Shown here: positions 10,056 to 63,773 of the stretch, in pieces
How positions within the stretch are numbered: position 1 is the stretch's first letter
Layout: every line of letters begins with the position of its first letter
From: Patescibacteria group bacterium
Lineage (GTDB): Bacteria > Patescibacteriota > Kazan-3B-28
DNA: 64,000 nt
Direction of reading: 5' to 3'
NCBI GenBank assembly: GCA_041649135.1
Contig: JBAZNQ010000002.1
Span: 41,238 to 105,237, forward strand
The notes under the pieces: model-generated
Seen by the model: only the letters and a program-made list of their open reading frames with translations
What the model was told of the DNA's origin: nothing
Database searches by the model: none
Position numbers and translations under genes: made by a program

Positions 10056-10056
10056 C

Positions 10057-10326: not shown

Positions 10327-10373
10327 ACGTTCGGATCGTCAAGCAGTTGAGCAAAAGATATCCAATAATTCTT

Positions 10374-11006: not shown

Positions 11007-11014
11007 TCACGTTT

Positions 11015-29204: not shown

Positions 29205-30650
29205 ATGCGTCCGCACCAGTTTGTTTTGGTTTGTAGTATCGGGATCTTAATTGGTGTTGCATTTAGCTCTAAACTCGCTCTCGCATCGGTTGCTGTCATC
29301 ATCTCCGCTAGCCTATTCGGGTTAGTGGCAATTTTGCGACCGAAACCAATCGCGCTAGCCACCTCAATTTTTTGTTTAGCAATTTTGCTGGGTTGGTGGC
29401 GAGGGCAATCAGTCATCTTCCACAGGCCATTAGTCAGTGACCTCGACAGCCGGACTGCGATTATCACGGGGCAAGTAGTGAGTGACCCAGATGTCATCGG
29501 TAATCAGCAACGGTTACATCTTAATGTCACTTCAATCGATGAAGAGCCTCGCTCGGTAAAAATTATGTTAACTACATGGCATCTCCCAGCACTTCAATAC
29601 GCCGATCAATTCAACGGGAAAATAAAATTTACTCTCCCCCAAAATACCGATGAATTTCAATATTCCAATTATCTCGCTAAAGACGGTATTTATCTGACTG
29701 CTACGCAGGCCGGAGAATTCACCCAGATACCCAATTCGCGCCGTACTATTTTGGGCACACTATATGGGGTAAAGCATTGGGTCAACAAGGTCATCCATCA
29801 ATTTCTCCCCGAACCACACGGTGCTCTCTTGGGTGGATTACTACTTGGCATCAAAACTGATTTACCAGACGATTTCCGGATTGCCTTAAAAAATTCCGGT
29901 ACTTCTCATATCGTGGCCCTGTCTGGTGCTAACTTGACCATTATTATTACCTTCATGTTGTTTATGCTTCAGCGGCTACCTCGTCGGTTGGTTTGGCTAA
30001 TTTCCGGTGTTGCAATTTTAGGTTTCGTGATTATGACCGGAGCCGCCAGCTCCGTTGTCCGAGCCGCCATTATGGGTTGGATTTTATTATTAGCTGGATT
30101 ATGGGGCAGACATCGTTCCGCCTGTAATGCCATTCTTCTCGCTACTGCTACCATGGTATTAATTCATCCTCTAATTTTGTTTTACGATATCGGTTTTCAG
30201 CTCTCGATCGCCGCTACTATTGGACTAATGTATGGAGCGTCATTATTTTCCCGCTGGCCCAAATGGTTACCGAGTTTCATCACCCAGCCCTTGTCCGCCA
30301 CCGTTGGCGCCACCATTTTTACCCTGCCTTTGATCGCCCTATATTTCGGTGGTGTGTCTTGGGTGACCCTGGGTGCTAATCTTTTGATCGTCCCCCTAGT
30401 TCCCTACGTCATGTTAGTTGGCTGTGTCGGACTGGCGATCTTCCTAATCGCGCCCCAGTTAATTTGGGTTAATGTCTTAGTCTGGCCATTATCCGCTCTC
30501 ATGTTTGGCATCATTAACTGGTTTGGTCACCTGCCTTCAGCTTTTGTTGAACTGCCGCCTATTCCCATTTGGATGCCGATCCTATATTATCTGCTTTTAT
30601 CTATCGGAGTAATTTATGCCCAACATCGTCGATCGCCACAACTGGTTTAA
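29205..30650 (+). CDS. comEC: ComEC/Rec2 competence protein, membrane (DUF4131 + competence) domains
   Basis: Polytopic protein with the ComEC channel-domain pattern (HIVALSGANLTII...). Confidence 0.8.
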   Translation: MRPHQFVLVCSIGILIGVAFSSKLALASVAVIISASLFGLVAILRPKPIALATSIFCLAILLGWWRGQSVIFHRPLVSDLDSRTAIITGQVVSDPDVIGNQQRLHLNVTSIDEEPRSVKIMLTTWHLPALQYADQFNGKIKFTLPQNTDEFQYSNYLAKDGIYLTATQAGEFTQIPNSRRTILGTLYGVKHWVNKVIHQFLPEPHGALLGGLLLGIKTDLPDDFRIALKNSGTSHIVALSGANLTIIITFMLFMLQRLPRRLVWLISGVAILGFVIMTGAASSVVRAAIMGWILLLAGLWGRHRSACNAILLATATMVLIHPLILFYDIGFQLSIAATIGLMYGASLFSRWPKWLPSFITQPLSATVGATIFTLPLIALYFGGVSWVTLGANLLIVPLVPYVMLVGCVGLAIFLIAPQLIWVNVLVWPLSALMFGIINWFGHLPSAFVELPPIPIWMPILYYLLLSIGVIYAQHRRSPQLV

Positions 30651-41916: not shown

Positions 41917-42738
41917 ATGAAATACACTATTCGTCAGTTCAGAGCAGACTTTCCTGATGAGGATACCTGCCTAGAATATGTCTTTAAGAAGCGGTTTCCC
42001 GAAGCCGAGCAGTATTATCGGGTAAAGGGTCGGAAATGTTGGGCTAACCCTGCTGGTGAGCAGATACACCCTTTGGCTGGGACTATCTTTGCGAAGTCCA
42101 GTACCCCTCTAACCCTATGGTTCTATGCGATCTATATGTTCGCTCAAAGCAAAAATGGAGTAGCGGCTAAAGAGCTGGAGAGACAGTTAGGGGTTACTTA
42201 TAAATGTGCTTGGCGTATGGCGAGACAGATTCGCAAACTAATGTCTGATGACGGAGAGCCACTTACCGGAGAAGTTGAGGTAGATGAAACCTACATTGGT
42301 GGTAAAGCTCTCAACAATATGCGGAAGAAGAATATAACCATCAAAGACAAGGAGGTTTTGTTCGGTATGGTGGAACGAGGCGGTCGGGTAAAAGCTAAGC
42401 ACCTGATTAGCAACGGTTCTCGTCTAATCATTCCCCAGATTAAAAAGAACATCGAACCTAAGAGTACGATCTACAGCGATTCCTACAGAGCTTATGACAC
42501 CTTAACTCGGCGTGGGTATTCCCACAGTTCGGTAAATCATCAAGAACATTTTGTAGTTGAACTCACCCACACCAATACGATTGAAGGTTTTTGGTCGCAG
42601 TTAAAGCGGAGCATTAACGGGACTTATCATCATGTTTCGGCAAAACATCTTCAGCTTTACGCTGATGAGTTTGCTTTCCGCTATTCTTGGCGGAAGTCTT
42701 CTCCGGCGATGTTTGATCTGCTGTTGGCGAGGGTGTAA
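41917..42738 (+). CDS. IS1595-family (ISXO2-like) DDE transposase
   Basis: N-terminal transposase zinc-ribbon (CLEY...C), ISXO2-like core with TIEGFWSQLKRSINGTYHHVSAKHLQLYADEF. Confidence 0.9.
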   Translation: MKYTIRQFRADFPDEDTCLEYVFKKRFPEAEQYYRVKGRKCWANPAGEQIHPLAGTIFAKSSTPLTLWFYAIYMFAQSKNGVAAKELERQLGVTYKCAWRMARQIRKLMSDDGEPLTGEVEVDETYIGGKALNNMRKKNITIKDKEVLFGMVERGGRVKAKHLISNGSRLIIPQIKKNIEPKSTIYSDSYRAYDTLTRRGYSHSSVNHQEHFVVELTHTNTIEGFWSQLKRSINGTYHHVSAKHLQLYADEFAFRYSWRKSSPAMFDLLLARV

Positions 42739-45393: not shown

Positions 45394-45467
45394 GCGGGTA
45401 TAGTTTAATGGTAGAATATCTCTTTTCCAAAGAGAATATACGGGTTCGATTCCCGTTACCCGCTCCA
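45394..45467 (+). tRNA. tRNA-Gly (anticodon UCC), CCA encoded
   Basis: Manual fold: acceptor GCGGGTA/TACCCGC, D-loop AATGGTAG, anticodon stem TCTCT/AGAGA with loop TTTCCAA (U33, anticodon TCC, A37), T-arm ACGGG-TTCGATT-CCCGT, discriminator T, then CCA. Confidence 0.85.
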
Positions 45468-46967
45468 GTCTGAACACAAGGCGCGCTCCGCGAGGAGCGC
45501 GTAAGGCGGAATCCAGTCCCAGAGCACTTTCCGAGAATTCAGAATCAGGTTCGAGCCAACCTCCGCGACAAAGTCGCGTAGTTCCAAGAGATCACCACCC
45601 GCAGCCGGGAGATTGCTCTCCCTGACTGCGTTAATCAGCTCCCGAAGAGGTTCGAGCCAGTACATCACCCCCTGACGGGCGATCTTGCCGAATTGGGTCT
45701 CAAGAGCTATCTTCGCATTCACCAACTTTCGCTTGCGGGCGGCATACTCCGCCCGATCAATTTCTCCATCTACATGCAAGTCATTCAATCTGCGCAGCTT
45801 CGCTGCGATCCCGGCAATTTCAATTTCAAGCTTGAGCGCTGGCGCATTCTCATTGGTTACGGCTTCAGCTTCCCAGTCGTCTAGCTGGCGGAGCATCGGG
45901 AAAACCCACTCCTCCGATTCTGGTAAGGCGATAGTCTTAAGCCGTTCCCACATCCTTGCTAATAAATCCTCTTCGCGCATAAACGGCTGGGAACATTTTA
46001 AAGTCCCGCCTTTTTTGGTGCAGCGATAGTAGCGCCAGACATGGTGGTTGCCGTTCTGCTGCGTCCTGACGTGTGTCTCGGCGGTAATCGAAGCTCCGCA
46101 TTCCCCACAGCGTATCAGCCCTAAGAATGGAAACTCTCTCTTGTAATGCGCTTGGGCTCTTCCTCGCTGAGCAAATACACGTTGCACCTTGTCCCAAAGT
46201 GCTTTGCTTACAACCGGTTCATGGCAACCCCTGTAAAGCTCGCCTTTCCACAAAATCGCCCCGTAGTAGAACGGATCAACCAGTATGCCCGACATGCTGG
46301 CTTTAGGGATCAAGGTCTCGTAGTAGCCCTTAAGCCCGTGTCCGTACATTACTTTCGCTAAGGCAAGCATTGAGTACTGGCCGGTGGCGTACAGCTCAAA
46401 CATCCGCTTGATTAACGGAAATCTGACAGGATCAGGAATAATCTCATGTGTTTTAGGATGATTGAGGTAGCCTAGTTTCGCTTTGCCGGGGTAGATGCCC
46501 TTCGCTAACTTAGATGCTAGACCACGGTGGACTAGCTCGCTCAGGTTATCAGTGTAGCGCTTGCTTTCGGCGAAAAAGAACGCCAGCATGAACTTGTCAG
46601 TACTCGTATTTTTGAAGGTAGAAGTAGCAGTCACAATCTGGTGCAATTGACCGGAATCGAGAAGCTCAATGATCCGCGCTCCATCCATAGCATTGCGGGC
46701 GATTCGTGAAGCATCATAAGCTAGCAGCGCGTTGGCTTTGCCCTGGCTGATGGAAGCAAGAACAGCATCAAACTGTGGCCTTCCTGGTTTCCTCGCACTC
46801 ATCGATTCCTCATACTGCTCTTCAAGACGCATTTGAAGGCTGCTAGCAGCTTTCAAAGCCCATTCGCGCTGGTCCGGGATGCTTTGTACTTGTCGCTCGT
46901 CGCTTTCAGTAGATTTACGGTAGTAAGCGACATATCTCAATTTGGTGTGCTGTAGTTTATTGCTCAT
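45456..46967 (-). CDS. Large serine recombinase (integrase), C-terminus overlapping the tRNA-Gly 3' end
   Basis: Resolvase/invertase N-domain with the catalytic serine region YYRKSTESDERQVQSIPDQ, a recombinase domain and a zinc ribbon (CGECGASI...C..C). The stop codon lies inside the tRNA acceptor stem. Confidence 0.9.
   Translation of the reverse strand: MSNKLQHTKLRYVAYYRKSTESDERQVQSIPDQREWALKAASSLQMRLEEQYEESMSARKPGRPQFDAVLASISQGKANALLAYDASRIARNAMDGARIIELLDSGQLHQIVTATSTFKNTSTDKFMLAFFFAESKRYTDNLSELVHRGLASKLAKGIYPGKAKLGYLNHPKTHEIIPDPVRFPLIKRMFELYATGQYSMLALAKVMYGHGLKGYYETLIPKASMSGILVDPFYYGAILWKGELYRGCHEPVVSKALWDKVQRVFAQRGRAQAHYKREFPFLGLIRCGECGASITAETHVRTQQNGNHHVWRYYRCTKKGGTLKCSQPFMREEDLLARMWERLKTIALPESEEWVFPMLRQLDDWEAEAVTNENAPALKLEIEIAGIAAKLRRLNDLHVDGEIDRAEYAARKRKLVNAKIALETQFGKIARQGVMYWLEPLRELINAVRESNLPAAGGDLLELRDFVAEVGSNLILNSRKVLWDWIPPYALLAERALCSDWSG
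45461..45539. repeat. Left copy of a perfect 79-bp inverted repeat (pairs with 47884..47962)
   Basis: CGCTCCAGTCTGAACACAAGGCGCGCTCCGCGAGGAGCGCGTAAGGCGGAATCCAGTCCCAGAGCACTTTCCGAGAATT is the exact reverse complement of 47884..47962. Its first 7 nt are the tRNA-Gly 3' end. Confidence 0.85.
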
Positions 46968-49985: not shown

Positions 49986-51653
49986 GTGGGGGATCTTGTG
50001 TTTGAGCATTCACCTTCTGTGTGGGATGTAGTAAGTGCTATCGCCAGCAGCCTGATGCTGTGGGCTTTGGTGATTCTGCTGCTGCTGGCCGTGCGCCTTT
50101 GGTTGACCAAGTTCATCTACTACATGCAGGACTACACCACCGGCTTTCTCAAAGTACGTGGCTTGGTAGCTGCCGCACAGCGTGAAGACGCATGGAAACT
50201 CAGCGAGCATCGTCCCGTTGGCAAGTATGCCGACTGCTCACTGACGCTCGGACTAACAGAGAGCAGCGGCTACTCACAGCCATTTGTGGTTCCCGGCGAT
50301 TACCGCACTACTCATATGTATGTGGTGGGCGCTTCCGGCTCCGGCAAGTCGTCGTTGCTGAAGAACCTGATCCATCAGGACATCCGCAGCGGGATGGGAC
50401 TGTGTGTGATCGACCCGCACGGCGATCTGATCTATGACACGGTGGCGCAGCTGGGCAAGCGAGCGGAGCAAACCGTGATGCTGGACTTGGCGGATACGGA
50501 ACACATGCTCGCGTACAATCCGCTTGAGCGCAGGCAAGGTGTGCTGGTTGCCGAGCAGGTGGCGAAGCTGATACTGGCGTTTCAGCGGATTTGGTCTGAC
50601 AGCTGGGGGTCTAGGATGGAAGACATCCTGCGCCATACGCTGACGCTGCTTGTCGAGCAGGGATACACGCTGGCGGAGTTCGAGCGCGTGCTGACCGACG
50701 CGGACTTCCGCGAGATGTTGGTTGAAGCATCGATGATTGACCAAACGCGCGAGTACTTCCTTGGACGCTACAACACATGGAACAGCAAGGAACGCCAGCT
50801 CTTCAGCGAGTCCTCTCTTAACAAGGTCTCGGCGTTCATGGCCGATCCTCGCATTGGCGTGAGACTCGGCCAGACTAAGTCCGGCTTCAACCTAAAGGAC
50901 ATCATGGACACCGGTGGGATACTGCTGGCGAATCTCGCGAAAGGCAAGCTGGCGGGTAACGCAGACCTATTCGGCGCGCTGCTGATGGCTGACATTGAAA
51001 TGAGCTTCCTTTCCCGCCCGCCAAACCAGCGCAGTCCGTTCGCGCTGTATGTCGATGAGTTTCAGAACATCGCAACGGAGAGTTTCGAGACGGTGCTGGC
51101 GGAAGCGCGCAAGTTTGGCCTGTGCTTAACGATGGCGCACCAATCCCTGAAGCAGGTTGATGACACGCTGGCTTCGCTCATCCTCGGCAACGCGCAGACG
51201 CAGGTGTACTTCCGTGTTGGCAGGCAAGATGCGGAGCGGTTGGCGAAAGAGTCTGCCAACATTATCGCGCAGCTGATCGAGCAAGAGGAAGAGCCGCAAT
51301 TGATGCAGGAACGGGAGCGGAAGTTCTCCATGTCCGAGTTATGGGAAGCGGCTTTTCACCAGCTTGTCCGGCTTGAGCCGCGCCGGGCTTATGTGATGGT
51401 CAAGGGCGCGATGGAGCATCCGGAGCTGGTTCGCACGATAGATAATCCTGTGGTCAAGAGCGTGAAGTTCCCTTACAGCGCAGCCTACGCCAAGCTGGAA
51501 GTGTTTGAGGCGGCGCTGAAACAGCGGGCGAAAGACATCATGCATGCAGTGGATGAGTACGTGAAGCAGAGGCAAGCGAAACAAGGCAAGCCAATTGAAG
51601 CCAGTCCTGGCGCGGATGAGGAAGTACCGGCAGCATTGGACTTCTTGAAGTAG
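49986..51653 (+). CDS. Type IV coupling-protein-like ATPase (TraD/TraG/VirD4 family; TraM-recognition/DUF87-like)
   Basis: N-terminal TM helix, Walker A VVGASGSGKSSLL, Walker B ALYVDEFQNI and a C-terminal TraD/TraG-like region (KFGLCLTMAHQSLKQV). Confidence 0.7.
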   Translation: MGDLVFEHSPSVWDVVSAIASSLMLWALVILLLLAVRLWLTKFIYYMQDYTTGFLKVRGLVAAAQREDAWKLSEHRPVGKYADCSLTLGLTESSGYSQPFVVPGDYRTTHMYVVGASGSGKSSLLKNLIHQDIRSGMGLCVIDPHGDLIYDTVAQLGKRAEQTVMLDLADTEHMLAYNPLERRQGVLVAEQVAKLILAFQRIWSDSWGSRMEDILRHTLTLLVEQGYTLAEFERVLTDADFREMLVEASMIDQTREYFLGRYNTWNSKERQLFSESSLNKVSAFMADPRIGVRLGQTKSGFNLKDIMDTGGILLANLAKGKLAGNADLFGALLMADIEMSFLSRPPNQRSPFALYVDEFQNIATESFETVLAEARKFGLCLTMAHQSLKQVDDTLASLILGNAQTQVYFRVGRQDAERLAKESANIIAQLIEQEEEPQLMQERERKFSMSELWEAAFHQLVRLEPRRAYVMVKGAMEHPELVRTIDNPVVKSVKFPYSAAYAKLEVFEAALKQRAKDIMHAVDEYVKQRQAKQGKPIEASPGADEEVPAALDFLK

Positions 51654-52320: not shown

Positions 52321-53247
52321 GTGAATGTATACAAAGCAAAGGCTGGGCGCTTCCTGTTGTATCTCGATATTCTAGGGTTCAAGCAACTAATCCGGCACCG
52401 CAGCCCTGAAGAGGTCTACGCCACAGTAGATCAGATGTTGAGAGAGACCGCTGAGCGAGAACGCGGTATACCGGATTTCACAACGTTATATTTCTCAGAC
52501 ACGATTGTCTTTTTTCAAAAGTCGGTCGGATACGGATCTTGGGCCTTTGGAGACATTTATTCATTAACTGCAATGATCTGGTCAGCACTGGCAGCCAGAA
52601 AAATACCGACTCGCGGAGCAATCGCCTTTGGAGACTTCCATGCCGAGCCAGATTCCCGTGGGCAGCACACGGTATTCTTCGGTGAGGCGTTGATAGAAGC
52701 TTACGAAACTGAAAAACTGGAAAACTGGATCGGAGTAACTCTATGTCCAAGCGCTGTGGAAATCGTTAATTACGTAGAGCCTAATCGACTTACGCAAATG
52801 CTAAATGAGCCAGGCGCTTTCGATTACGTGGATCAGATTGAGAAAGAGCACGCAGCCTATACTCCGGCTGTCTTTGTCGAGTATTTTAAGAAGGCACAGC
52901 CAACAGTACTGCATAGAACTGCTTGCCGTCGAGTGCTCCTCAATCCACTGTACTTTCTGCATCAAACTTGGTTCGCAGATGTCTACGATGAGGGAGTAGT
53001 GAGTTACCCCCTTCATCATGATAGTGTGCATTTCGCTCATGATATTCTCTCCCTGAAGTTCATCCTACAAACCGCAGAGGAACCAGATGGAGCTGATCCA
53101 GAGCGGAACAAAGTCCTCGCCAAGTATAGAAATACAGCAGCGCTCCTCCGCCAGATGTTTCCGTCAGAGTGTATCGAGTGGGCCTTGAAGCTCTATGAAA
53201 CTTTCCCGGACCAGGCAGACGAAGGGTGGGGCGACTGGAAGAAATGA
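52321..53247 (+). CDS. Class III nucleotidyl cyclase-like (AC/GC/GGDEF palm) domain protein with unknown C-terminal domain
   Basis: LYLDILGF matches the FADIVGFT metal-binding motif; FSDTIVFF lies 43 residues later, matching the second metal Asp (GDxxxxF); RGAIAFGDF matches the RIGIHxG arginine. GTG start. The assignment rests on motifs only. Confidence 0.45.
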   Translation: MNVYKAKAGRFLLYLDILGFKQLIRHRSPEEVYATVDQMLRETAERERGIPDFTTLYFSDTIVFFQKSVGYGSWAFGDIYSLTAMIWSALAARKIPTRGAIAFGDFHAEPDSRGQHTVFFGEALIEAYETEKLENWIGVTLCPSAVEIVNYVEPNRLTQMLNEPGAFDYVDQIEKEHAAYTPAVFVEYFKKAQPTVLHRTACRRVLLNPLYFLHQTWFADVYDEGVVSYPLHHDSVHFAHDILSLKFILQTAEEPDGADPERNKVLAKYRNTAALLRQMFPSECIEWALKLYETFPDQADEGWGDWKK

Positions 53248-53416: not shown

Positions 53417-53761
53417 TTGCGCATCAAGGACATCAAGAGTCTTGTTTGGCTCTATCGCTGGTACAACGGACGTTCCCAGCGTCTTCAAGAAACCCATCAA
53501 GTTCATCTTGCCGCTGTTTCGCAACTAGTCGTTGATGAGCTTGGCGGCACACCGCAGGGCAGCACGGAAGTCTGCCTGTGCGGATTTTCTCTTATCGTAA
53601 AGGCCAGCCCTGACGGGCTGGCGATTGAGTCCATTACCCCGCCTACATTTATCAACGGCGTTCAGCTGATGTTGTTTGACGCCGATTTGGATGATGACTA
53701 CCTGGCGGGCCAGTACTGTGAATCCACTGAAGAGGTGCAACGTGAAGTTGCTTACCGATGA
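53417..53761 (+). CDS. Hypothetical protein
   Basis: 114 aa ORF in the island; no motif recognised. Confidence 0.35.
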   Translation: MRIKDIKSLVWLYRWYNGRSQRLQETHQVHLAAVSQLVVDELGGTPQGSTEVCLCGFSLIVKASPDGLAIESITPPTFINGVQLMLFDADLDDDYLAGQYCESTEEVQREVAYR

Positions 53762-54095
53762 GCTTCTGAAGAAGCTAGAAGCTCAAGATCCCTATGGTCC
53801 GACTGGACCAGGACGGGAACTCACCAAAGAAGAAGAGCAGGTCGTCTGCAAGTTCTTCACGCCGGATGCTAACTGGACGTGGTACGCGGTTTCCGCGTCC
53901 CGCGATCCTGAAACCGGCGATGTGCAGTTCTTCGGTTTGGTTGACGGTCTCGAACTGGAACTCGGCTACTTCTGGTTATCCGAGTTGACTAAGGTTCGGG
54001 GCATACTCGGCTTGCCGGTGGAGCGCGATCTCTACTGGCAGCCGCAGCCGCTCTTCAAGCTGATGGAGGAACTGGAACATGCAGCAGTCAGCTGA
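53742..54095 (+). CDS. DUF2958-family protein (common on conjugative elements)
   Basis: KLLTDELLKKLE...PDANWTWYAVSASRDPETGDVQFFGLVDGLELELGYFWLSELTKVRGILGLPVERDLYW matches the DUF2958 consensus. GTG start with SD GAGGTG 5 nt upstream. Confidence 0.6.
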   Translation: MKLLTDELLKKLEAQDPYGPTGPGRELTKEEEQVVCKFFTPDANWTWYAVSASRDPETGDVQFFGLVDGLELELGYFWLSELTKVRGILGLPVERDLYWQPQPLFKLMEELEHAAVS

Positions 54096-55375: not shown

Positions 55376-56377
55376 ATGGATCAGCATGGCTTATGTACAA
55401 TGGTACTGAGACCAAACCATATGAGTCCACGTAAACCAAAGACAGACCAGAAACGGCTACCGCGAACAAAGCGAGCCAAGCACCCGCCTGCTTTTCGGAT
55501 TACCAAGCGCGATGTAGAGCTGGTGCGCGCTATCCTGAATTACCGCTTCCTCTACACTAAGCACGTGTTCTGGCTGTTGCCGAAAGCCAGCCAGCAGAAC
55601 CTGACCGTGCGGTTGCGGCACCTATACCATCATGGCTACTTGAATCGCGTTTTGCTTCCTGACTCCAGTACCAATGAGCAGCTGGTCTACGCGCCGACCG
55701 AAAAGGGCGCGGTGATGGTTGCGGATGCGGACGGTATCAGCCGAGATGAAGTTGAATGGCACCGCTACATGAACATCGTCTCGCCCTCGCATATCCGCCA
55801 CCTGCTCTCAATCAACGACGTGCTGGTGTCTTATGAGATTGCGCTAGGGCAAGCTAAGGCTCAAGGCAAGATAGCGGATTACAAGGTAGTGCGCGGGGAG
55901 CCGCGCAAACACAAGCTACCGGTGCTGCTTAGAGACAAGGACGGCAAACGGCGTGAGGTTGCCAATGTGCCGGACGCTTATCTTGCGGTAGTGTTTGACA
56001 GCCACAATTACGGCGTGTTCTTTGTGGAAGTGGACAGGGCGACGATGGGGTCGTCGCGCTGGGCAGAGAAGATCGAGGTCTATCGCGAGTACCCGCGCAC
56101 CCAGCACTTCAAGGACAAGTTTAAGGCGCAATGGTGTATAGTGTTAACCGTCGCGCCGAGCGAAAAGCGGGTCATGTCGCTAGCGGAGAAAACCGCCGGC
56201 ATGGGGGGTCAGCGGGGATTCTGGTATGCGCTCGCTGACCAGCTAACACCGGATACCGCTTGCGGACCCGTTTGGATCAGAGCGTCGGACTTATTTGGTG
56301 TTCGTAATGAAAGGGTGGTCAAGCTGAGCGAAATCAGCAGGGCTATCAGATCGGGATTGCCCGATGCGCTAAGGTAG
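55376..56377 (+). CDS. Replication-relaxation family protein (plasmid/ICE replication initiator-like, winged helix)
   Basis: ITKRDVELVRAILNYRFLYTKHVFWLL...QNLTVRLRHLYHHGYLNRV matches the N-terminal wHTH of the replication-relaxation family. The true start may be an internal Met (MSPRKPK). Confidence 0.6.
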   Translation: MDQHGLCTMVLRPNHMSPRKPKTDQKRLPRTKRAKHPPAFRITKRDVELVRAILNYRFLYTKHVFWLLPKASQQNLTVRLRHLYHHGYLNRVLLPDSSTNEQLVYAPTEKGAVMVADADGISRDEVEWHRYMNIVSPSHIRHLLSINDVLVSYEIALGQAKAQGKIADYKVVRGEPRKHKLPVLLRDKDGKRREVANVPDAYLAVVFDSHNYGVFFVEVDRATMGSSRWAEKIEVYREYPRTQHFKDKFKAQWCIVLTVAPSEKRVMSLAEKTAGMGGQRGFWYALADQLTPDTACGPVWIRASDLFGVRNERVVKLSEISRAIRSGLPDALR

Positions 56378-56395: not shown

Positions 56396-56737
56396 ATGGC
56401 TGAGCCATTGGAGCACCTGAAAGGTGCCAGCGATAGCAAGCGTGGTTTCTGGAACTGGGCTGTGTACTGGTGGGGAGAGCTCGTCAATTCGCGCTTCTTC
56501 CTCTACCTCTACGACTACACCTGCATGCGCATTCCCTTGACCAAGCGCTACCGAGAGCTGACGCTGGATCAGCTGACATGCCGGTTCTGTGGGAATAGCA
56601 TTGACCTGCTGGGCGCTTGGCGCTGCGAGTGCGGCTACTCCCGCCCTGGCAACTACTTCGGGCGCTGCCCGAAGTGCCTGAACTACCCGCGCTACATTGA
56701 CTGCCCAGCTTGCAGGTTTACTATGGACGTGAGGTGA
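56396..56737 (+). CDS. Cys-rich zinc-finger protein (hypothetical)
   Basis: CRFCG...CECG...CPKC...CPACRF gives four CxxC pairs. Confidence 0.4.
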   Translation: MAEPLEHLKGASDSKRGFWNWAVYWWGELVNSRFFLYLYDYTCMRIPLTKRYRELTLDQLTCRFCGNSIDLLGAWRCECGYSRPGNYFGRCPKCLNYPRYIDCPACRFTMDVR

Positions 56738-56744
56738 ATTTGTA

Positions 56745-59015
56745 ATGATTACTCAGATATCCATAAGCAAGACGGCCATTTATGGCGATACGCCAGTTGT
56801 GTTAGACGAATTGCTTCAATTCAACTATGTTTTCGGTGCTAATGGTTCAGGCAAAACGACAGTAAGTCGTTTTCTCAATGACACTTTAAATCCAGAGTAT
56901 TCAAATTGCTCAGTTACGTATCAAGGAATTTCTCGACCTAATATTCTCGTCTACAACAAGGATTTTGTTGACGACAAGCTAAATGTATCAACAGCGATAC
57001 CAGGCATTTTTACTTTCGCTGATGAAAATGAACCAGCAAGGGCGAAAATCAAAGAACTAGCTGATACTTGCGCTGGCTATACTAAGACCCTTGAAGGACT
57101 CAACATCACCTTGAATGGAGGAGATGGCAAACCGGGTGAATTAGGCAAATTGCAAGTACTAGACGCTGACTTTCGCGGAAGATGTTGGCGACAAAAGCTC
57201 AAATACGACGCTGACTTCAAGAGCGCCTTCTCCGGATTTCGCCGGAACTCTGCCGATTTTATGAAGAAGGTTCTCCTTGAATACGCTGAGAATAAAGCCA
57301 CATTACTAAACATAGATACTCTGAAGAGCAAAGCAGGCTCCATCTTCACCGATACCCAGACAAGTGAGCCATCTTTTGAAATTATCGACTTCAGCAGAAT
57401 CCTCACCTATGAATCGAGCCTCCTGTTAAAGAAAGTGGTGGTTGGCAAACAGGATGTTGATATCGCCAGCATGATTAAGAAGTTGGGAAACAGCGATTGG
57501 GTGAAGACAGGGCGCCCATACTACGACATCAACGACATGTACTGTCCATTCTGTCAGCAACTTACTACAGAGCAGTTCGCCAAGGAACTGAATGAGTATT
57601 TCGATTTATCATTTGAATCTGATATGAAAGATTTACAGCAACTATACCAAGACTATGATGCTGAATCACAAGCAATCGAAGACAAGCTTAACACTATAGC
57701 AAGCCGTTCCTCGGTTTTCGTTGATATGAATCAACTAATAGCCGAAAGAGACACTCTCTTCGCTTTACTAAAAGCGAATACAGCCATTATCGAACAGAAA
57801 GTGAAAGAGCCAAGTCGGATATTTAGTCTTCAACCGCTAAATGAAGTAGTTAGTAGAATTAGCAATTTGTTGAATACAGCCAATGACAAGATTGACGAAC
57901 ACAACAAGCTAGTAGCGAACATTGCCGCTGAGCGTAAACTATTAACTGCCCAAGTATGGAGATTCATTATTGATTCAGAGTTGAAGGACGAGATTGAGAA
58001 GTACTTAGATGAGAAGAACAAAATTGAGAAAGCAATAACCGGCATCAACGCTAGAATTACCAAAACAAGTACGGAGCTGGAGAATGCCCAGAATGAAAGC
58101 AGTGCGCTTAGTAGGCAGATGACTAGCATTGAACCTACGGTACGACGCATTAATGATATTCTGCGTTCGTTCGGTTTCCTGAGTTTTCACTTAAAGGTTG
58201 CCGAAGATAGAACTTCTTACAAGATTGTACGCAGCAACGGAAGTGATGCTCGGCAGACCCTGAGCGAGGGTGAGCGCGCTTTTATTTCATTTCTCTATTT
58301 TTTCAGTATGATTTCCGGAAGCGTAGATGCGGACGGTTTAGCCGGAGACAGAATTGTCGTTTTTGATGATCCAGTATCTAGTTTAGATAGCGACGTTTTG
58401 TTTATTGTTAGCTCACTCATCAAGCAGACTATTAAACACTCGCGCGAGAAGATTAGCAGAGTCAGACAGATTTTCGTTTTTACACATAATGTATTTTTCC
58501 ATCGTGAGGTTACATTTGATATTAATAGAAGAGGACCAAAAAGGAATGATGAAACATTCTGGGTATTGCGGAAGATTAATAATAGGCCTCTTGCTAAATC
58601 GCATGAGGAGAATCCTATCACTACTTCCTATGAGCTGCTTTGGAGTCAGTTAAGAGACGATATGTCTAGCTCCTCAACGTTAGCAAATGTAATGCGACGG
58701 ATTCTGGAGCATTACTTCAAACTGCTTGGAGGAATGAAAGACGAGGACATATTTCAAAGGTTTGAAGGTGACGAGCAGCTAATATGCCGTTCGTTATTTT
58801 CATGGATGAACTATGGCTCGCATTGCTCGGATGACGATCTATATGTTGCAGTGGACGAGTCTATGGTGGAGAAGTACAAATCAGTATTCAAGAAGATATT
58901 CGTTGACACTGGACATGAGAAACATTTCGAGATGATGATGAAGGGGTTTGAATTTCCCGAAAAGGAAGCGCCATTAGAAGCTCCAGAGCCAGTCGAGGAA
59001 GCTGTTGTGGGTTAG
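56745..59015 (+). CDS. RloC-like AAA_13 ATPase (restriction-linked; putative wobble-nucleotide-excising anticodon nuclease)
   Basis: N-terminal Walker A FGANGSGKTT, long coiled coil containing a CxxC zinc-hook-like motif (YCPFCQQ), Walker B/D-loop VVFDDPVSSLDSD and a ~200-aa C-terminal domain. Located directly upstream of a Type III R-M pair. Confidence 0.6.
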   Translation: MITQISISKTAIYGDTPVVLDELLQFNYVFGANGSGKTTVSRFLNDTLNPEYSNCSVTYQGISRPNILVYNKDFVDDKLNVSTAIPGIFTFADENEPARAKIKELADTCAGYTKTLEGLNITLNGGDGKPGELGKLQVLDADFRGRCWRQKLKYDADFKSAFSGFRRNSADFMKKVLLEYAENKATLLNIDTLKSKAGSIFTDTQTSEPSFEIIDFSRILTYESSLLLKKVVVGKQDVDIASMIKKLGNSDWVKTGRPYYDINDMYCPFCQQLTTEQFAKELNEYFDLSFESDMKDLQQLYQDYDAESQAIEDKLNTIASRSSVFVDMNQLIAERDTLFALLKANTAIIEQKVKEPSRIFSLQPLNEVVSRISNLLNTANDKIDEHNKLVANIAAERKLLTAQVWRFIIDSELKDEIEKYLDEKNKIEKAITGINARITKTSTELENAQNESSALSRQMTSIEPTVRRINDILRSFGFLSFHLKVAEDRTSYKIVRSNGSDARQTLSEGERAFISFLYFFSMISGSVDADGLAGDRIVVFDDPVSSLDSDVLFIVSSLIKQTIKHSREKISRVRQIFVFTHNVFFHREVTFDINRRGPKRNDETFWVLRKINNRPLAKSHEENPITTSYELLWSQLRDDMSSSSTLANVMRRILEHYFKLLGGMKDEDIFQRFEGDEQLICRSLFSWMNYGSHCSDDDLYVAVDESMVEKYKSVFKKIFVDTGHEKHFEMMMKGFEFPEKEAPLEAPEPVEEAVVG

Positions 59016-59083
59016 GTGGCACGGTGTCGGAGAGCGTTAATCGTAATTGGCAGTCGCCTGTTCGTCCGGCATAATGGAGTCGT

Positions 59084-60958
59084 ATGAAAGAGCCAGACAA
59101 GAAGCATGGAGTCGAACACGTCACGCGGGAAGCAGGGCTGGACATGAATGAGCGCGTGGAGTTTCTGCGCGAGCTGTTCCCGGAAGCCGTTGCTGAGGGC
59201 AGGGTGGACTGGGACAAGCTGCGTGCGGCGCTGGGCGAAGCGGTGGAAGGGAGCGCGGAGCGGTACAGTTTCTCATGGGCTGGCAAGCGCGACGCGATAA
59301 GGTTGGTACAGATGCCGAGCCGCGCAACGTTGAACCCCGCGCAGGATGAGTCCGTGGATTGGGACACGACCAGGAACGCCTTCATCGAGGGCGACAACCT
59401 TGAGGTGCTGAAGCTTCTGCTAAAGGCGTACTACGGGCGAGTGAAGATGATCTACATCGACCCGCCTTATAACACCGGCAATGACTTCGTTTATCCTGAC
59501 AATTACGCCGATCCGCTAGACACCTACCTCAAGCTGTCTGGTCAGAAAGACGCGGATGGCAACTTGCTGACTACTAACGCCAACACAAGCGGGCGCTATC
59601 ACTCGGTTTGGCTGTCAATGATGTACCCGCGCCTCTTCCTCGCCAAGCAAATGCTTCGAGAGGACGGAGTGATATTCGTAAGCATTGATGATAACGAAGT
59701 TCATAATTTGCGTCTGATAATGAACGAGATATTTGGCGAGGAAAACTTTATTGCACAATTCGTTTGGGAGAAGATGTATACAACCAAGAATGATGCTGCG
59801 CAGGTGTCCATATGTCACGAGTACGTTATTTGCTACGCGCACAATAGCAATGAATCGATGATTCAGTTACTCCCACGAACTGACGAAATGGATGCTAGAT
59901 ACACTAATCCGGACAATGATCCTCGCGGACAGTGGAAAGCGATTCCCTTGTACGCTGACGGAGAAAGGAAGAATGGCAGATTTCCAATAGCAAGTTCCAC
60001 AGGTAAAGTGACTGAGTTGGGGCCAAACAAGCATTGGCGATACCGATCTGAGGATGTTCAAGCACTTATTGCAGATAGCCGTATCTACTTCGGCAAAGAT
60101 GGGAATGGACAGCCTGTCTTGAAACGTTTCTTATCGGAAGTTCAGAGCGGGTTAAAAACAAAGACCTTATGGTCACACTCTGAGGTTGGGAGCAACGATT
60201 CAGCTAAACGGCAGCTCAGGCAGCTTTTTCCTGAGGCTACTGACGCTTTCAGTTTTCCTAAGCCCAGCACGCTAGTACAACACATGCTACGGCTTATCAC
60301 TACTCAAGCAGAAGAACTTGTGATGGATTTTTTTGCGGGAACCTGCACCACGGCTGAAGCCGTGCTTGAACTCAACCACACTGACTCGGGTAAACGAAGA
60401 TTCATTATGGTCCAGCTTCCCGAACTGACGGGACTCGCGAAGTGGGCAACTATCGCTGAGATCGGGAAGGAGCGTATCCGTCGCGTTATCGAAAAACTTA
60501 AAGCAGACCAGCAAGACAAGTTGAAGCTGGCAGAGCGCAACGAACCTGAAGACCTGGGCTTCCGCGTGTACAAGCTGGCAGAATCCAATTATAAGCTGTG
60601 GACAGGCGTCGCGGACAATGACCCCGACAAGTACGCGGCAGAACTGGAGCTGTTCGCCGATCCGCTATACGATGGCTGGCTACCTGAAAGCGTGATATAC
60701 GAAGTCGCAGTGAAAGAGGGCTACGGGCTGGGCTTGAGCATCGCAAAGGTAGACGGCGTCAAGAAGAACGAGGTTTACCGTGTGAGCGATGCGGGCAAGG
60801 GGCAGAGCTTCATCATCTGCCTGGACAGCAAACTCGACCCGCAAACGCCGCGCGAGCTGGAACTAAAGAAAGATGATCTATTTGTTTGCCGCGACATCGC
60901 GCTGACGGATGAACTGGCGGCTAACCTTGCTCTGCAATGCAGGCTGAAGACGGTGTAG
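59084..60958 (+). CDS. mod: Type III restriction-modification system methyltransferase (Mod), N6-adenine
   Basis: KMIYIDPPYNTGNDFVYPDNY (DPPY motif IV) and an SAM-binding FxGxG region; size and order match Type III Mod. Confidence 0.85.
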   Translation: MKEPDKKHGVEHVTREAGLDMNERVEFLRELFPEAVAEGRVDWDKLRAALGEAVEGSAERYSFSWAGKRDAIRLVQMPSRATLNPAQDESVDWDTTRNAFIEGDNLEVLKLLLKAYYGRVKMIYIDPPYNTGNDFVYPDNYADPLDTYLKLSGQKDADGNLLTTNANTSGRYHSVWLSMMYPRLFLAKQMLREDGVIFVSIDDNEVHNLRLIMNEIFGEENFIAQFVWEKMYTTKNDAAQVSICHEYVICYAHNSNESMIQLLPRTDEMDARYTNPDNDPRGQWKAIPLYADGERKNGRFPIASSTGKVTELGPNKHWRYRSEDVQALIADSRIYFGKDGNGQPVLKRFLSEVQSGLKTKTLWSHSEVGSNDSAKRQLRQLFPEATDAFSFPKPSTLVQHMLRLITTQAEELVMDFFAGTCTTAEAVLELNHTDSGKRRFIMVQLPELTGLAKWATIAEIGKERIRRVIEKLKADQQDKLKLAERNEPEDLGFRVYKLAESNYKLWTGVADNDPDKYAAELELFADPLYDGWLPESVIYEVAVKEGYGLGLSIAKVDGVKKNEVYRVSDAGKGQSFIICLDSKLDPQTPRELELKKDDLFVCRDIALTDELAANLALQCRLKTV

Positions 60959-60968
60959 GGCTAGCGCT

Positions 60969-63725
60969 ATGGAATTTAAGTTTGACGCTAATCAGGAGTA
61001 CCAGCTTACGGCGATAGATGCCGTGGTCAGCCTGTTCAACGGCCAGCCGCATATGGAAGCCGTGATCACGTTTGGCACTGAGGTGATACTCCCAGAGCAC
61101 GCATATCAGACCGATCTGCCGCTGCCGGCTGACAGACCTAAGCAGATGGCTTTGTCAGCGGGACTTGCCGCAGTGCCGAACCAGATTGAGCTAACACCAG
61201 AGGAAATCCTGCGCAACCTGCGCGATTTGCAAGAAGCGAATGGCATAGAACCGGACGCGGAGCTGAAGTACATCGCGGGCGAAATCGAGACGGCTGAAGG
61301 CAAGGCGGAAGCGCGCTTCCCCAATTTCTCCGTGGAGATGGAGACCGGCACGGGCAAGACCTACGTGTACATTCGCACCGTGCTTGAGCTGTACCAGCGT
61401 TATGGGATGCGTAAGTTTATCGTGGTCGTGCCGTCTATCGCTGTACGTGAGGGCGTGCTGAAGTCGCTGAAGGTCACGTCGCGGCACTTGAAAGAGCTGT
61501 ATAGCAATCCGACCTATCGCTTCTATGTCTACGACTCAGCCAGCCTGAGCCAGGTCCGTGGTTTCGCCACTTCGAGCGGCGTCGAGATCATGGTGATGAC
61601 GCTGGACTCGTTTAACAAGGCGGTAAAAGAAGACGGCGCAGGTGGCAACGTGATTTTCAAGAGCACGGACAAGCTGTCCGGCGAAAAGCCGATCCACCTG
61701 ATTCAGAACACGCGCCCGATTCTCATTCTCGATGAACCGCAGAACATGGAGAGCGAGAAAAGCGTGGAAGCGCTCAAGGTGCTGAACCCGCTATGCGCCT
61801 TGCGCTACAGCGCGACGCACCGCAATCCGTACAATGTCGTCTACCGGCTGTCGCCGTTCGATGCCTACCGGCAGAACATCGTGAAGCGAATCGAAGTGGC
61901 GTCGGTCGTTAAAACCGATGACGCCAACCAAGCGTTCATGCGGCTGGAAAGCGTGAAGACGCTGAAGAACACCATCACGGCAAAGCTGACGGCGCACAAG
62001 CTGATGAAAGACGGCACTGTCAAGGAAACGAGCTTCACGCTGAAACCTGATAGCGACCTGGCTGAACTAACGAACTTGCCGCAGTATGCTGGCTTGACGG
62101 TTGAAGAGATTGACGTGGTGGGGCAACGTGTCCTATTCACCAATGGCGTCGAATTAACTGCTGGCGAAGCACAGGGCGCGGACAAGGACGCAATCTTCGA
62201 GGCGCAGATTCGCTACACCGTGGAAGAGCATATGCGTAAGGCGAAGCGCTTCCGCGATGCGGGAATCAAGGTGCTGTCGCTCTTCTTCATTGACCATGTC
62301 GATAACTATGTGCTTGAAGACGGGCTTATCAAGAAGCTTTTCGATAAGGCGTACTTAGCGCTTCGCGATAAGCATCCTGAATGGAAGCAGTGGGAGCCAG
62401 ATGAAGTGCGCGCTGCGTACTTTGCCCAGCGCAAGGTGAAGGGCACAACGGAAGCCGTGGACACCACGGGCAAGAGCGCGGCGGACGCCTACGCTTACGA
62501 CCTGATTATGAAAGACAAGGAACGCCTGCTGTCGTTCGAGTCGCCGGTGGCGTTCATCTTCTCTCACTCGGCGCTACGTGAAGGTTGGGACAATCCGAAC
62601 GTATTTCAGATTTGCACGCTGAACCAGACGGCATCGGAAATCAAGAAGCGCCAAGAAGTCGGGCGCGGTATCCGGCTGGCGGTGAACCAGACCGGCGAAC
62701 GTGTCCACGAGGAAGCGGTGAACGTGCTGACCGTCGTGGCGAATGAGAGCTATGAGCAATATGTCGCTTCACTACAAAGCGAGATTGAAGCGGAGTACGG
62801 AGCTTCCGGCGTGCCGCCTAAGCCGCCGCGCGCCGAACGTGTAACCGTCCGGCTGAACAAGAAGTACCTGCTCAGCGATGACTTCAAGAACCTTTGGGAG
62901 AAGATTAAGCACAAGACTCGTTACTCGGTGAAGATTGATACGGACAAGCTGGTCGGTGATGTGCTGGCGGAGTTGGACAAAGCGGTAATCAGCAAGCCAC
63001 GCGTGGAAATTCGCAAGGCAGATGTAACCGTAGACAAAGAGGAAGCGTTCAAGGCACTGCTAAAGACCGGCGCAAAGACGCTGATTGACCTGTCCGGCAA
63101 GTACCCCTTGCCTAACCTAGTCGAACTGCTGCTGCACCAGCTTGAGCACACCAGCCCGCCGGTGCGACTGACGCGGGCAACGCTGGCGCGGATCGTGCGC
63201 GAGACCAAGCGCAAAGCTGACGCGGCGCTGAATCCGCAAGAGTTCGTGCGGGTCGCGACCGACATCCTCAAAGACAAACTGGCTGAAAGCCTGATTGACG
63301 GGATTGAGTACGAGAAGATGAATGCTTGGTACGAGATGAGCCAGTTCGAAGATTTCGAAAGCTGGCGAGAACACCTTGTACCGGCGAAACACTCGGTCTA
63401 TGACGCGACGCCATTCGACTCCGAGATTGAGCAGAAATTCGCTGAAGGGCTGGAAGCGCGCGAAGATGTGCGCCTATACGTCAAACTGCCAAGCTGGTTC
63501 ACCGTGCCAACGCCTGTGGGAGAGTATAATCCTGATTGGGCCATTGTGATGAACAGCGAAGACGAGGGCAAGCCGGTGTTGTATTTGGTGCGGGAAACCA
63601 AAGGAACCACCAATCCGTGCGACCTGCGCCCCGACGAGAAGCGTAAAATCATCTGTGGTAAAAAGCATTTCAAGGATGCTCTAGCTATCGATTACAAGGT
63701 TGTTGCGAAAGCATCCGAGGTTTAG
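60969..63725 (+). CDS. res: Type III restriction enzyme Res subunit (SF2 helicase + endonuclease)
   Basis: N-terminus MEFKFDANQEYQLTAIDAVVSLFNGQ is typical of Res. Walker A METGTGKTYV, DEPQN box and a C-terminal PD-(D/E)xK-like region. Confidence 0.9.
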   Translation: MEFKFDANQEYQLTAIDAVVSLFNGQPHMEAVITFGTEVILPEHAYQTDLPLPADRPKQMALSAGLAAVPNQIELTPEEILRNLRDLQEANGIEPDAELKYIAGEIETAEGKAEARFPNFSVEMETGTGKTYVYIRTVLELYQRYGMRKFIVVVPSIAVREGVLKSLKVTSRHLKELYSNPTYRFYVYDSASLSQVRGFATSSGVEIMVMTLDSFNKAVKEDGAGGNVIFKSTDKLSGEKPIHLIQNTRPILILDEPQNMESEKSVEALKVLNPLCALRYSATHRNPYNVVYRLSPFDAYRQNIVKRIEVASVVKTDDANQAFMRLESVKTLKNTITAKLTAHKLMKDGTVKETSFTLKPDSDLAELTNLPQYAGLTVEEIDVVGQRVLFTNGVELTAGEAQGADKDAIFEAQIRYTVEEHMRKAKRFRDAGIKVLSLFFIDHVDNYVLEDGLIKKLFDKAYLALRDKHPEWKQWEPDEVRAAYFAQRKVKGTTEAVDTTGKSAADAYAYDLIMKDKERLLSFESPVAFIFSHSALREGWDNPNVFQICTLNQTASEIKKRQEVGRGIRLAVNQTGERVHEEAVNVLTVVANESYEQYVASLQSEIEAEYGASGVPPKPPRAERVTVRLNKKYLLSDDFKNLWEKIKHKTRYSVKIDTDKLVGDVLAELDKAVISKPRVEIRKADVTVDKEEAFKALLKTGAKTLIDLSGKYPLPNLVELLLHQLEHTSPPVRLTRATLARIVRETKRKADAALNPQEFVRVATDILKDKLAESLIDGIEYEKMNAWYEMSQFEDFESWREHLVPAKHSVYDATPFDSEIEQKFAEGLEAREDVRLYVKLPSWFTVPTPVGEYNPDWAIVMNSEDEGKPVLYLVRETKGTTNPCDLRPDEKRKIICGKKHFKDALAIDYKVVAKASEV

Positions 63726-63773
63726 CGTCTCTAGCCACAAGTATGTAAGAAGGAGGGCTTACTTACAATAGAA

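Follow-up and report, generated by a model that had tools for sequence, protein, structure and literature searches.

A predicted RloC-family anticodon nuclease as exchangeable cargo beside a Type III restriction-modification system on a mobilizable element

Introduction

In the window, i.e., the whole stretch of 64,000 nucleotides analyzed here, a gene for a 756-aa protein stands immediately upstream of the two genes of a Type III restriction-modification (R-M) system. A sequence-only reading took this protein for RloC-like and proposed that it would serve Type III restriction as a coupled, tRNA-targeting suicide backup. The locus raises two questions: is the gene a genuine rloC, and is its product tied to the neighboring restriction enzyme? 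Between 2008 and 2013, the RloC family was described along with its architecture and its occasional linkage to Type I or Type III systems, so a specialist will find nothing surprising in them; the original work (PMC2610378) did not settle what triggers RloC biologically or how it relates to restriction systems. The host genome is labeled Patescibacteria by NCBI.

Organization of the locus and its mobile element

The three genes and the element that carries them comprise the following features:

45394-45467, + strand: tRNA-Gly(TCC), left end of the island
45456-46967, - strand: large serine recombinase gene, its 3' end overlapping the tRNA-Gly
49986-51653, + strand: T4SS coupling protein, mobilization backbone (family scans)
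53676-54095, + strand: DUF2958 gene, mobilization backbone (family scans)
55376-56377, + strand: Replic_Relax relaxase, mobilization backbone (family scans)
56745-59015, + strand: rloC, ATG start, 756 aa, with AAA_13, PDC-S06, and PrrC profile matches
59084-60958, + strand: mod, Type III R-M methyltransferase, 624 aa (PADLOC MTase_III, 2.7e-188)
60969-63725, + strand: res, Type III R-M restriction subunit, 918 aa, helicase and C-terminal endonuclease (PADLOC REase_III, 2.4e-252)

Mod covers positions 14–609 of the 621 positions of the MTase_III profile and matches Pfam N6_N4_Mtase (6.5e-30), and Res matches Pfam ResIII (1e-12) and, at aa 808–913, RE_endonuc (3e-37), along with the NCBIfam type III endonuclease model (3.7e-90). 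Judged by these profiles, the pair downstream of rloC, an N6/N4 methyltransferase (Mod) and then an SF2 helicase with a PD-(D/E)xK-type endonuclease (Res), both of full length, is a predicted intact Type III R-M system. The profile scores of rloC, mod, and res lie far above chance level. The linkage pointed out earlier from the letters of the DNA is real, with mod following rloC after 68 nt and res following mod after 10 nt in the ORF listing. The identical 756-aa protein is found in the identical three-gene order on three other metagenome contigs, which come from three other samples.

The suspected island is equally concrete: rloC, mod, and res are carried by an integrative mobilizable element of ~18 kb that is inserted at tRNA-Gly and has its serine recombinase, coupling protein, and relaxase in place. 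The GC content rises from 0.466 in the host to 0.53 in the island and drops to 0.415 past position 63730. Because a search for a repeat of the tRNA-Gly 3' end of at least 12 nt returned none, only the drop in GC and the adjoining genes place the right end of the island. No complete E. coli genome gave a Megablast match to the 7.5-kb region.

Family assignment of the 756-aa protein

The protein matches Pfam AAA_13 with E=9.7e-167 (residues 11–719, profile positions 3–712 of 713), the profile search that the sequence-only reading had asked for, and PADLOC PDC-S06 (PDLC04890) with E=2.1e-259 (aa 1–734, profile positions 1–724 of 732), a family that PADLOC lists as a candidate single-gene defense system only. 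The PADLOC PrrC model matches aa 466–731 (E=3.9e-14). Over aa 1–747, the protein shares 35% identity (E=4e-147) with WP_011711575, a 746-aa plasmid protein of Shewanella sp. ANA-3, which is entry #60 in Table S1 of the original RloC list (Davidov & Kaufmann 2008, PMC2610378); the two characterized RloCs, for comparison, share 33% identity with each other. This end-to-end comparison was made with the listed Shewanella orthologue, while the likeness to GkaRloC of Geobacillus kaustophilus rests on landmark residues, which are colinear with K44/C291/D572/R692/E696/H737 of that enzyme. The JGI annotation of the identical protein reads "wobble nucleotide-excising tRNase". The motifs that define the family lie as follows, their invariance being judged across 26 homologues of 40–70% identity:

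56835-56858, + strand: Walker A (P-loop) G31ANGSGKT38; G31, G36, K37, T38, and T39 invariant
57543-57554, + strand: zinc-hook motif C267-P-F-C270; CPFCQ invariant
58260-58388, + strand: ABC signature L506SEGE510, Walker B I537VVFDD542, and D-loop S545SLD548; SEGE and DDPVSSLD invariant
58482-58490, + strand: H-loop with linchpin histidine, T580-H581-N582; invariant, aligning with THNV of the Shewanella RloC
58695-58823, + strand: anticodon-nuclease triad R651-x3-E655-x37-S692-H693; R651, R652, I653, E655, G691, S692, and H693 invariant

The Walker A, the coiled coil with CPFC, and the Walker B/D-loop that had been noticed earlier are thus all found, and their motif residues are invariant. K37 corresponds to GkaRloC K44, and CPFC sits midway in a helical insert of ~360 aa (aa ~96–460), as expected of a putative zinc hook. 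The published anticodon nuclease (ACNase) motif is R-x3-E-x36-52-H, often with Ser before His (PMC2610378); the x37 spacing of the present triad falls inside this range, and the R651RILE655 and S692H693 region aligns with MRRIIENYF...GSHC of the Shewanella RloC. The C-terminal residues on which the sequence-only reading had made its proposal depend are therefore present. The protein shows each element of the RloC definition of Davidov & Kaufmann (2008), namely the complete and invariant ABC-ATPase motifs, the coiled-coil insert with a central CxxC, and the C-terminal ACNase triad, together with full-length homology to accepted orthologues. As judged from this homology, the gene clearly belongs to the RloC family, whose members are "suicide" defense enzymes that cut tRNA, and the identity proposed for it holds. 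The literature on PDC-S06 and on RloC in combination with Type III restriction, as searched here, yielded no experimental anti-phage test of the family.

The protein has the domain order of GkaRloC and of AbaRloC from Acinetobacter baylyi, i.e., Walker A, coiled coil with CxxC, signature, Walker B/D-loop, H-loop, and triad. RloCs are likewise often cargo of mobile elements, occasionally lie beside Type I or Type III R-M genes, and have an unusual codon usage. The window protein is shorter than the characterized RloCs (756 aa vs 804–826 aa) and falls into a subgroup of ~735–756 aa, of which the original table, too, has an example of 743 aa; its gene further differs in that it occupies a delimited slot for cassettes on a mobilizable element at tRNA-Gly. 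With PrrC-EcoprrI of E. coli it has in common an ABC-ATPase followed at the C-terminus by an anticodon-nuclease domain that bears an Arg/Glu/His triad, and proximity to R-M genes as a second line of defense. PrrC (~400 aa), however, is without the coiled-coil/zinc-hook insert that the window protein possesses at 756 aa, and the PrrC model covers aa 466–731 only. Moreover, prrC is always flanked by hsdS and hsdR in a Type Ic locus, whose enzyme silences PrrC, whereas the window rloC has the Zn-ribbon ORF (see below) and the relaxase gene upstream and stands beside a Type III system, outside mod-res, as an interchangeable cassette.

Predicted structure

In the AlphaFold2 (AF2) model, long helices flank CPFC on either side (aa 96–262 and 276–458), and an all-helical extra domain of ~140 aa at the C-terminus bears the triad. 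The top PDB fold matches are Rad50 (7zr1, 5da9, and 9q9i among the best; E from 1e-7 to 1e-5), with further matches to Smc5/6 and RecN heads. Phmmer of the 756-aa protein and of the C-domain profile against PDB sequences gave noise only, and yielded no RloC or PrrC structure with which to compare it. The sequence-only reading had assigned the C-terminal domain to an unknown fold; the literature, however, places the PrrC/RloC nuclease domain among the HEPN domains (Anantharaman et al. 2013, PMC3710099).

A cassette slot upstream of mod

Comparison with sister elements, five elements in all, delimits a slot that holds rloC in the window:

56396-56737, + strand: 113-aa Zn-ribbon ORF, backbone gene, left flank of the slot
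56734-59064 (approximate), no strand: variable defense-cassette slot, bounded by breaks in DNA homology with sister elements
59047-59077, + strand: putative promoter-like site TTGGCA-17-CATAAT in the rloC-mod spacer, recognized by consensus match and conservation only

DNA homology with L091 spans 56489–56733, breaks, and restarts at 59065, where homology with L090 restarts as well; the junctions are sharp in the alignments, and GCATAATGG (59069–59077), invariant in four elements, marks the right edge of the slot. In place of rloC, the slot contains GajA and GajB in L091, GajB in L090, an MBL-like gene in L092, and another gene or genes in L093; L091 and L090 retain this mod-res pair, with a Res that is 72% (L091) and 87% (L090) identical to that of the window. 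The sister island L004 shows the converse: the Zn-ribbon ORF and a full-length rloC of 70% identity are kept, and the R-M system, on the strand opposite to rloC, is Type I-like instead of Type III. The composition of rloC departs from that of mod-res, and its GC3 is 0.44 vs 0.58–0.78 in the backbone. The gene is therefore one of several interchangeable defense cassettes, swapped at this slot. A fixed site between conserved backbone genes that receives varied defense systems in related elements is familiar from hotspots of integrative/conjugative and mobilizable elements and of prophages, such as those of the SXT ICE and of P2/P4; the present slot is similar, with RloC, Gabija, or an MBL-fold candidate according to the element. 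We know of no earlier description of this element family (serine recombinase, T4SS coupling protein, DUF2958, Replic_Relax, and Zn-ribbon ORF) with its slot ahead of a Type III mod.

The 3' end of the Zn-ribbon ORF provides a Shine-Dalgarno-like GAGGTGA for rloC. Family scans gave no family match for this ORF, which is kept whatever the cargo (57% identity in L004, 58% in L091, and a remnant of 79% over aa 80–113 in L092). It was considered as a partner or antitoxin of RloC and rejected, since L091 has it ahead of Gabija, L092 still has a remnant of it, and none of the 80 reference rloC loci has it.

Alternative readings and the link to restriction

A Rad50/SbcC- or SMC-like ATPase that serves the mobile element in DNA repair or DNA transfer, with no RNase function, would account for the Rad50, Smc5/6, and RecN heads among the best PDB folds, for weak SMC_N and RecF matches, and for the nearby relaxase and coupling protein, and Pfam calls many AAA_13 members conjugative transfer proteins. 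Rad50/SbcC, of the Mre11-Rad50 DNA-break sensors, indeed shares the bipartite ABC head, the long antiparallel coiled coil, and the CxxC zinc hook. The window protein, however, has a much shorter coiled coil and an extra C-terminal domain, predicted to be an RNase, whose invariant R-x3-E...SH triad is missing from Rad50/SbcC; the PrrC model reaches into this domain, the ORF list and family scans of the island contain no Metallophos gene that could supply an Mre11/SbcD partner, the slot alternates with Gabija, a defense system, and the homologues lie mostly outside conjugative contexts. We regard a repair or transfer role as very improbable, and give no more credence to a decayed RloC carried along as a passive passenger. 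A relic might be suspected from the low GC3 relative to the island, which could signal poor expression, and from orthologues with poor triads or missing P-loops in the original table. However, the ORF is of full length with every catalytic and regulatory motif intact, an unchanged protein recurs in three other samples, the L004 copy is likewise of full length, and rare codon usage, which holds down expression, has been described as usual for RloC (PMC2610378).

In coupling of the PrrC kind, Mod/Res would physically silence RloC until phage anti-restriction or failed restriction frees the tRNase, and the three genes would form one integrated unit of two layers. In its favor, rloC lies directly 5' of mod on the same strand; the order rloC then Type III mod recurs in L014 and L022 with a 42-nt gap, mod-res-rloC is found in L005 and L026, and in 9 of the 80 reference loci hsdS and rloC overlap by their stop and start codons, as for prrC. 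Of the 72 orthologues in the original RloC paper, 8 lay in Type I/III loci (PMC2610378), and a HEPN survey describes PrrC/RloC as "often found in R-M operon" (PMC3710099). Our own count agrees with the published 8/72: R-M neighbors occur at ~20% of the 80 reference loci (about 15–17), an approximate figure that combines two methods because the phmmer seed scan, which detected no R-M gene within 6 kb at 63 of the 80, missed members found by BLAST clustering (HsdS in L034, L048, and L052; DUF2130 in L041 and L046). Against such coupling, ~80% of the loci are without an R-M neighbor, the closest relatives of this mod-res pair have Gabija or other genes where rloC would be, the closest relative of this rloC adjoins an unrelated R-M system, rloC differs in composition from mod-res, and the rloC-mod spacer contains a promoter-like site. 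Furthermore, RloC has been shown to have a switch of its own, which depends on DNA, ATP, and the zinc hook, and to need no R-M system for its activation: the A. baylyi enzyme becomes active even in mutants deficient in R-M, and in GkaRloC the control lies with the protein's zinc hook and ATPase (PMC3458546, PMC3874168). Coupling of this kind is thus quite unlikely at this locus, although a regulatory link between RloC and R-M may exist in some lineages, since their adjacency recurs in several independent layouts. Of the backup originally envisaged, two co-resident layers of defense on one island are supported; a functional coupling specific to Type III restriction is not supported, as sister elements swap the cargo of the slot or pair rloC with a Type I-like system.

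We consider it likely that the gene encodes a genuine RloC-family anticodon nuclease, which forms an autonomous cassette and is a modular neighbor of the Type III system rather than its obligate partner.

Proposed mechanism and implications

By analogy with the Geobacillus and Acinetobacter enzymes, the RloC of the window would act as a dimer of Rad50-like ABC-ATPase heads with a fold-back coiled coil and the CPFC zinc hook at its tip. In the resting state, zinc-hook joints would hold off the C-terminal RNase, and DNA-end binding together with ATP hydrolysis would switch it on; the R651/E655/H693 site may then cut the anticodon loop of tRNA at the wobble position, which would stop translation and abort the infection. 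The sequences themselves show the family, the intact motifs, the island setting, the limits of the slot, and the exchange of its cargo; that the protein is a tRNase, that DNA ends trigger it, and that it acts in synergy with Mod/Res, if it does, we infer. RloC and the Type III system probably act as complementary layers, in which restriction of DNA comes first and translation shut-off second.

The finding adds a well-supported RloC to a genome in the Patescibacteria as labeled by NCBI, and the slot offers a clean natural case in which RloC, Gabija, and others are exchanged at one base-precise position beside Type III R-M on a mobilizable element. It is conceivable, though fairly unlikely, that the position between the Zn-ribbon ORF and mod is reserved for the expression of abortive modules of a second line, RloC in the window and Gabija or an MBL-fold candidate in sister elements, that exploit the neighboring restriction enzyme. 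The DNA ends left where Res cuts incoming DNA would then, with ATP, switch on the RloC tRNase. The rloC-mod-res unit is a handy construct for asking whether restriction-made DNA ends activate the tRNase; if they do, restriction and translation shut-off would be a single signaling chain and not two independent layers.

Three-gene locus and identity of the 756-aa protein

The sequence-only reading placed a gene for an RloC-like zinc-hook ATPase directly upstream of a Type III restriction–modification (R-M) system, and this ORF layout is present as described:

56745-59015, + strand: rloC, 756-aa ORF
59084-60958: mod, 624-aa ORF, 68 nt after rloC; PADLOC MTase_III
60969-63725: res, 918-aa ORF, 10 nt after mod; PADLOC REase_III

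The mod product covers nearly the entire MTase_III profile (2.7e-188), and Res matches REase_III (2.4e-252) and contains the Pfam domains ResIII and RE_endonuc; by these profiles, mod-res is an intact Type III system.

RloC orthologues are recognized by ABC-ATPase motifs, a coiled-coil insert bearing a CxxC, and an Arg-x3-Glu-x36-52-His triad, often with Ser before the His, which is backed by mutagenesis of R692, E696, and H737 in Geobacillus kaustophilus RloC (GkaRloC) (PMC2610378). The 756-aa protein contains Walker A (G31ANGSGKT), C267PFC270, a signature (L506SEGE), Walker B (I537VVFDD), and a D-loop (S545SLD), with R651RILE655 and S692H693 near the C-terminus; the latter form the triad R651-x3-E655-x37-S692-H693. 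These landmarks are colinear with K44, C291, D572, and R692/E696/H737 of GkaRloC, and the P-loop, CPFCQ, SEGE, DDPVSSLD, THN, RRI-E, and GSH are invariant when the protein is aligned with 25 homologues (40–70% identity). Pfam AAA_13 matches end to end (E=9.7e-167); the PADLOC candidate family PDC-S06 matches as well (2.1e-259), and the PADLOC PrrC model does so across aa 466-731 (3.9e-14). An AlphaFold2 model (pLDDT 78) predicts an ABC head, a CPFC loop with long helices to either side, and an all-helical C-terminal domain.

A tblastn search of plasmids recovered a 746-aa protein of Shewanella sp. ANA-3, which is listed as #60 in the original RloC table (PMC2610378) and whose gene is flanked by an IS200/IS605 transposase; BLASTP aligns it over aa 1-747 with all motifs (35% identity, E=4e-147). 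The two biochemically characterised RloCs are only 33% identical to each other. Streptococcus prophage homologues (27.5% identical) are annotated "translation-disabling ACNase". The identical sequence is already public, as "AAA family ATPase [Patescibacteria group bacterium]" at NCBI and as "wobble nucleotide-excising tRNase" at JGI.

Two related families were weighed. PrrC shares the C-terminal model match; however, the coiled-coil insert and the location outside a Type Ic locus exclude this identity. Rad50/SbcC is likewise rejected, since an Mre11/SbcD partner is missing from the island and an additional nuclease domain is present; the C-terminus, inspected for loss of the triad or a plain SMC/Rad50 appearance, retains the triad. 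The RloC identity thus holds, and the protein is a further member of a known family, with its motifs intact.

Mobile island

The locus was said to be carried on an island, and this is correct, since the region is an integrative mobilizable element of ~18 kb, marked by a tRNA gene, a recombinase, a T4SS coupling protein, a relaxase, and a GC shift. Its left end comprises:

45394-45467: tRNA-Gly(TCC)
45456-46967, - strand: large serine recombinase, 503 aa (Resolvase, Recombinase, Zn_ribbon_recom, SHOCT)

The 3' end of the recombinase gene overlaps the tRNA gene by 12 nt, where GC jumps, and this overlap (45394-46967) is the probable integration site; no repeat of the tRNA end of ≥12 nt was found elsewhere in the window. 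Past the recombinase come genes for a T4SS coupling protein, DUF2958, and a Replic_Relax relaxase, a Zn-ribbon ORF of 113 aa (Zn-ORF), and then rloC, mod, and res. GC rises from 0.466 in the host part to 0.53 across the island and drops to 0.415 past 63730; other copies of the contig carry NUDIX, GSCFA, and EPSP synthase genes downstream of res. Beyond these, ~3 kb past the window's right end, lies a chromosomal TIR_2-domain gene (L001:18935-19348, L003:13108-13827), which may be a further defence gene close to the integration site.

Within the island, a 308-aa ORF (52321-53247, +) has no match in Pfam, PADLOC, or NCBIfam; with a GC (0.487; GC3 0.495) below that of the backbone, it may represent further acquired cargo. 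The host part (1-45393) contains a short 570-aa alanine-tRNA ligase (36926-38638), a short 481-aa ComEC-like protein (29205-30650), and an IS1595-family transposase (41917-42738); the short genes and the NCBI label "Patescibacteria group bacterium" of the source MAG are compatible with a reduced genome.

Defence-cassette slot

The Zn-ORF (56396-56737, +), for which no family match was found, has four Cys pairs (CxxC, CxC, CxxC, CxxC) and probably forms a double zinc ribbon. Sister elements conserve it as a backbone gene behind the relaxase (L004:5490-5747, L091:2233-2562, L092:4361-4462). The ORF stops 4-8 nt short of the first cargo gene regardless of cargo, and its 3' end includes the Shine-Dalgarno-like GAGGTGA used by rloC.

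The closest rloC relative (L004, 70% identity) lies in a sister element that shares the DUF2958-relaxase-Zn-ORF backbone. Homology to it at the DNA level spans 56501-58952 and ends where rloC ends; downstream, L004 has a fused Type I-like R-M gene plus YgjP on the opposite strand. The closest relatives of Res (L090-L093) lack rloC. The sister element L091 (Res 72% identity) encodes a relaxase, Zn-ORF (58% identity), GajA (6e-131), GajB (8e-128), mod, and res; L090 (87%) has GajB immediately upstream of mod; L092 (69%) has there a Zn-ORF remnant plus two genes, one an MBL-fold candidate and the other unknown; and L093 (61%) is located in a prophage. Homology with L091 spans 56489-56733, breaks, and resumes at 59065, the identical base at which L090 restarts. 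The aligned junctions are the Zn-ORF stop codon on the left and an invariant GCATAATGG (59069-59077), upstream of mod, on the right. Therefore, ~56734-59064 is a base-precise defence-cassette slot.

Cargo of the slot in the window and in Res relatives
Window, ~56734-59064: rloC (likewise in L004)
L091, 2563-6064: GajA and GajB
L090, 1-1666: GajB (contig cut)
L092, 4463-6050: MBL-fold PDC-M48B-like gene and unknown 231-aa gene

With a GC3 of 0.44 vs 0.58-0.78 for the island, rloC is compositionally foreign to it; odd codon usage was called typical of rloC by the original authors (PMC2610378). Sharing of the slot with Gabija is a tidy case of defence-cargo exchange, not a new principle.

Neighbourhoods of rloC in other genomes

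An exhaustive HMMER scan yielded 1,171 clusters (50% identity) at E<=1e-30 and 4,101 at E<=1e-3. Relatives are encoded in at least 553 species-level reference genomes from many phyla, and in one archaeon. The surroundings of rloC differ widely among 80 reference loci, and R-M genes lie within 6 kb of it in ~15-17, in agreement with the published 8 of 72 orthologues, some annotated "Type III R-M"; Type III linkage and mobile-element carriage were already reported in 2008 (PMC2610378). Type III mod follows rloC by 42 nt in L014 and L022, and the order is mod-res-rloC in L026 (reference) and L005 (metagenomic). In nine loci (L025, L031, L034, L048, L052, L059, L065, L081, L086), a full-length zinc-hook rloC directly follows hsdS inside a Type I hsdM-hsdS-(rloC)-hsdR locus, with stop and start codons overlapping or nearly abutting (-3 to +10 nt), an embedding that is PrrC-like. 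The L025 and L081 hsd loci also contain a RhuM/Fic gene, which was noted in a HEPN survey (PMC3710099).

A DUF2130 gene (Pfam E=2e-83 for the L028 representative) adjoins rloC (match ~10001-12200) on the same strand, with gaps of 11-166 nt, in nine of the 80 loci (L014, L017, L022, L023, L028, L041, L046, L064, L073), the order being DUF2130-rloC-Type III mod in L014 and L022; its product may be a recurrent uncharacterised partner. Further genes follow rloC in L005-L008 (e.g., L005:10248-15017): 25 nt past the 46%-identical homologue, a Metallophos gene and a 1162-aa AAA_23/AAA_27 ATPase form an SbcCD-like pair, on an island that also holds GmrSD, Type III mod-res, and a NERD/UvrD helicase. 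SbcCD or metallophosphoesterase neighbours are listed for three orthologues in the original table (PMC2610378).

Proposed coupling to Type III restriction and likely mechanism

The proposal of a two-layer defence coupled to Type III restriction stands insofar as both systems occupy the same island, but not as a specific tie. The association is modular, because the closest rloC adjoins a different R-M gene, the closest Res relatives lack rloC and carry Gabija or other genes in the slot, and the reference loci vary. Published biochemical studies agree with this: the zinc hook of GkaRloC itself silences the enzyme, which ATP hydrolysis together with linear DNA activates, and a double-strand-break inducer activates A. 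baylyi RloC, which cleaves tRNA-Glu and tRNA-Gln, even in R-M-deficient mutants (PMC3458546, PMC3874168). A PrrC-like physical coupling of RloC to Mod/Res is disfavoured and seems unlikely; that DNA ends made by the neighbouring Type III enzyme are the natural trigger of RloC, a more novel reading, also has a low probability.

The sequence comparisons show RloC membership, intact motifs, the layout of the island, and the exchange of cassettes; for activity, trigger, and any cross-talk, we favor an autonomous latent tRNase as the inferred reading. Its nuclease would be held off by coiled coils joined via the zinc hook and switched on by DNA ends plus ATP, whereupon the R651/E655/H693 site would excise the wobble nucleotide from a subset of tRNAs, halting translation. 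The Type III enzyme would restrict unmodified incoming DNA, and the two systems would act as successive layers of defence on one mobile element.
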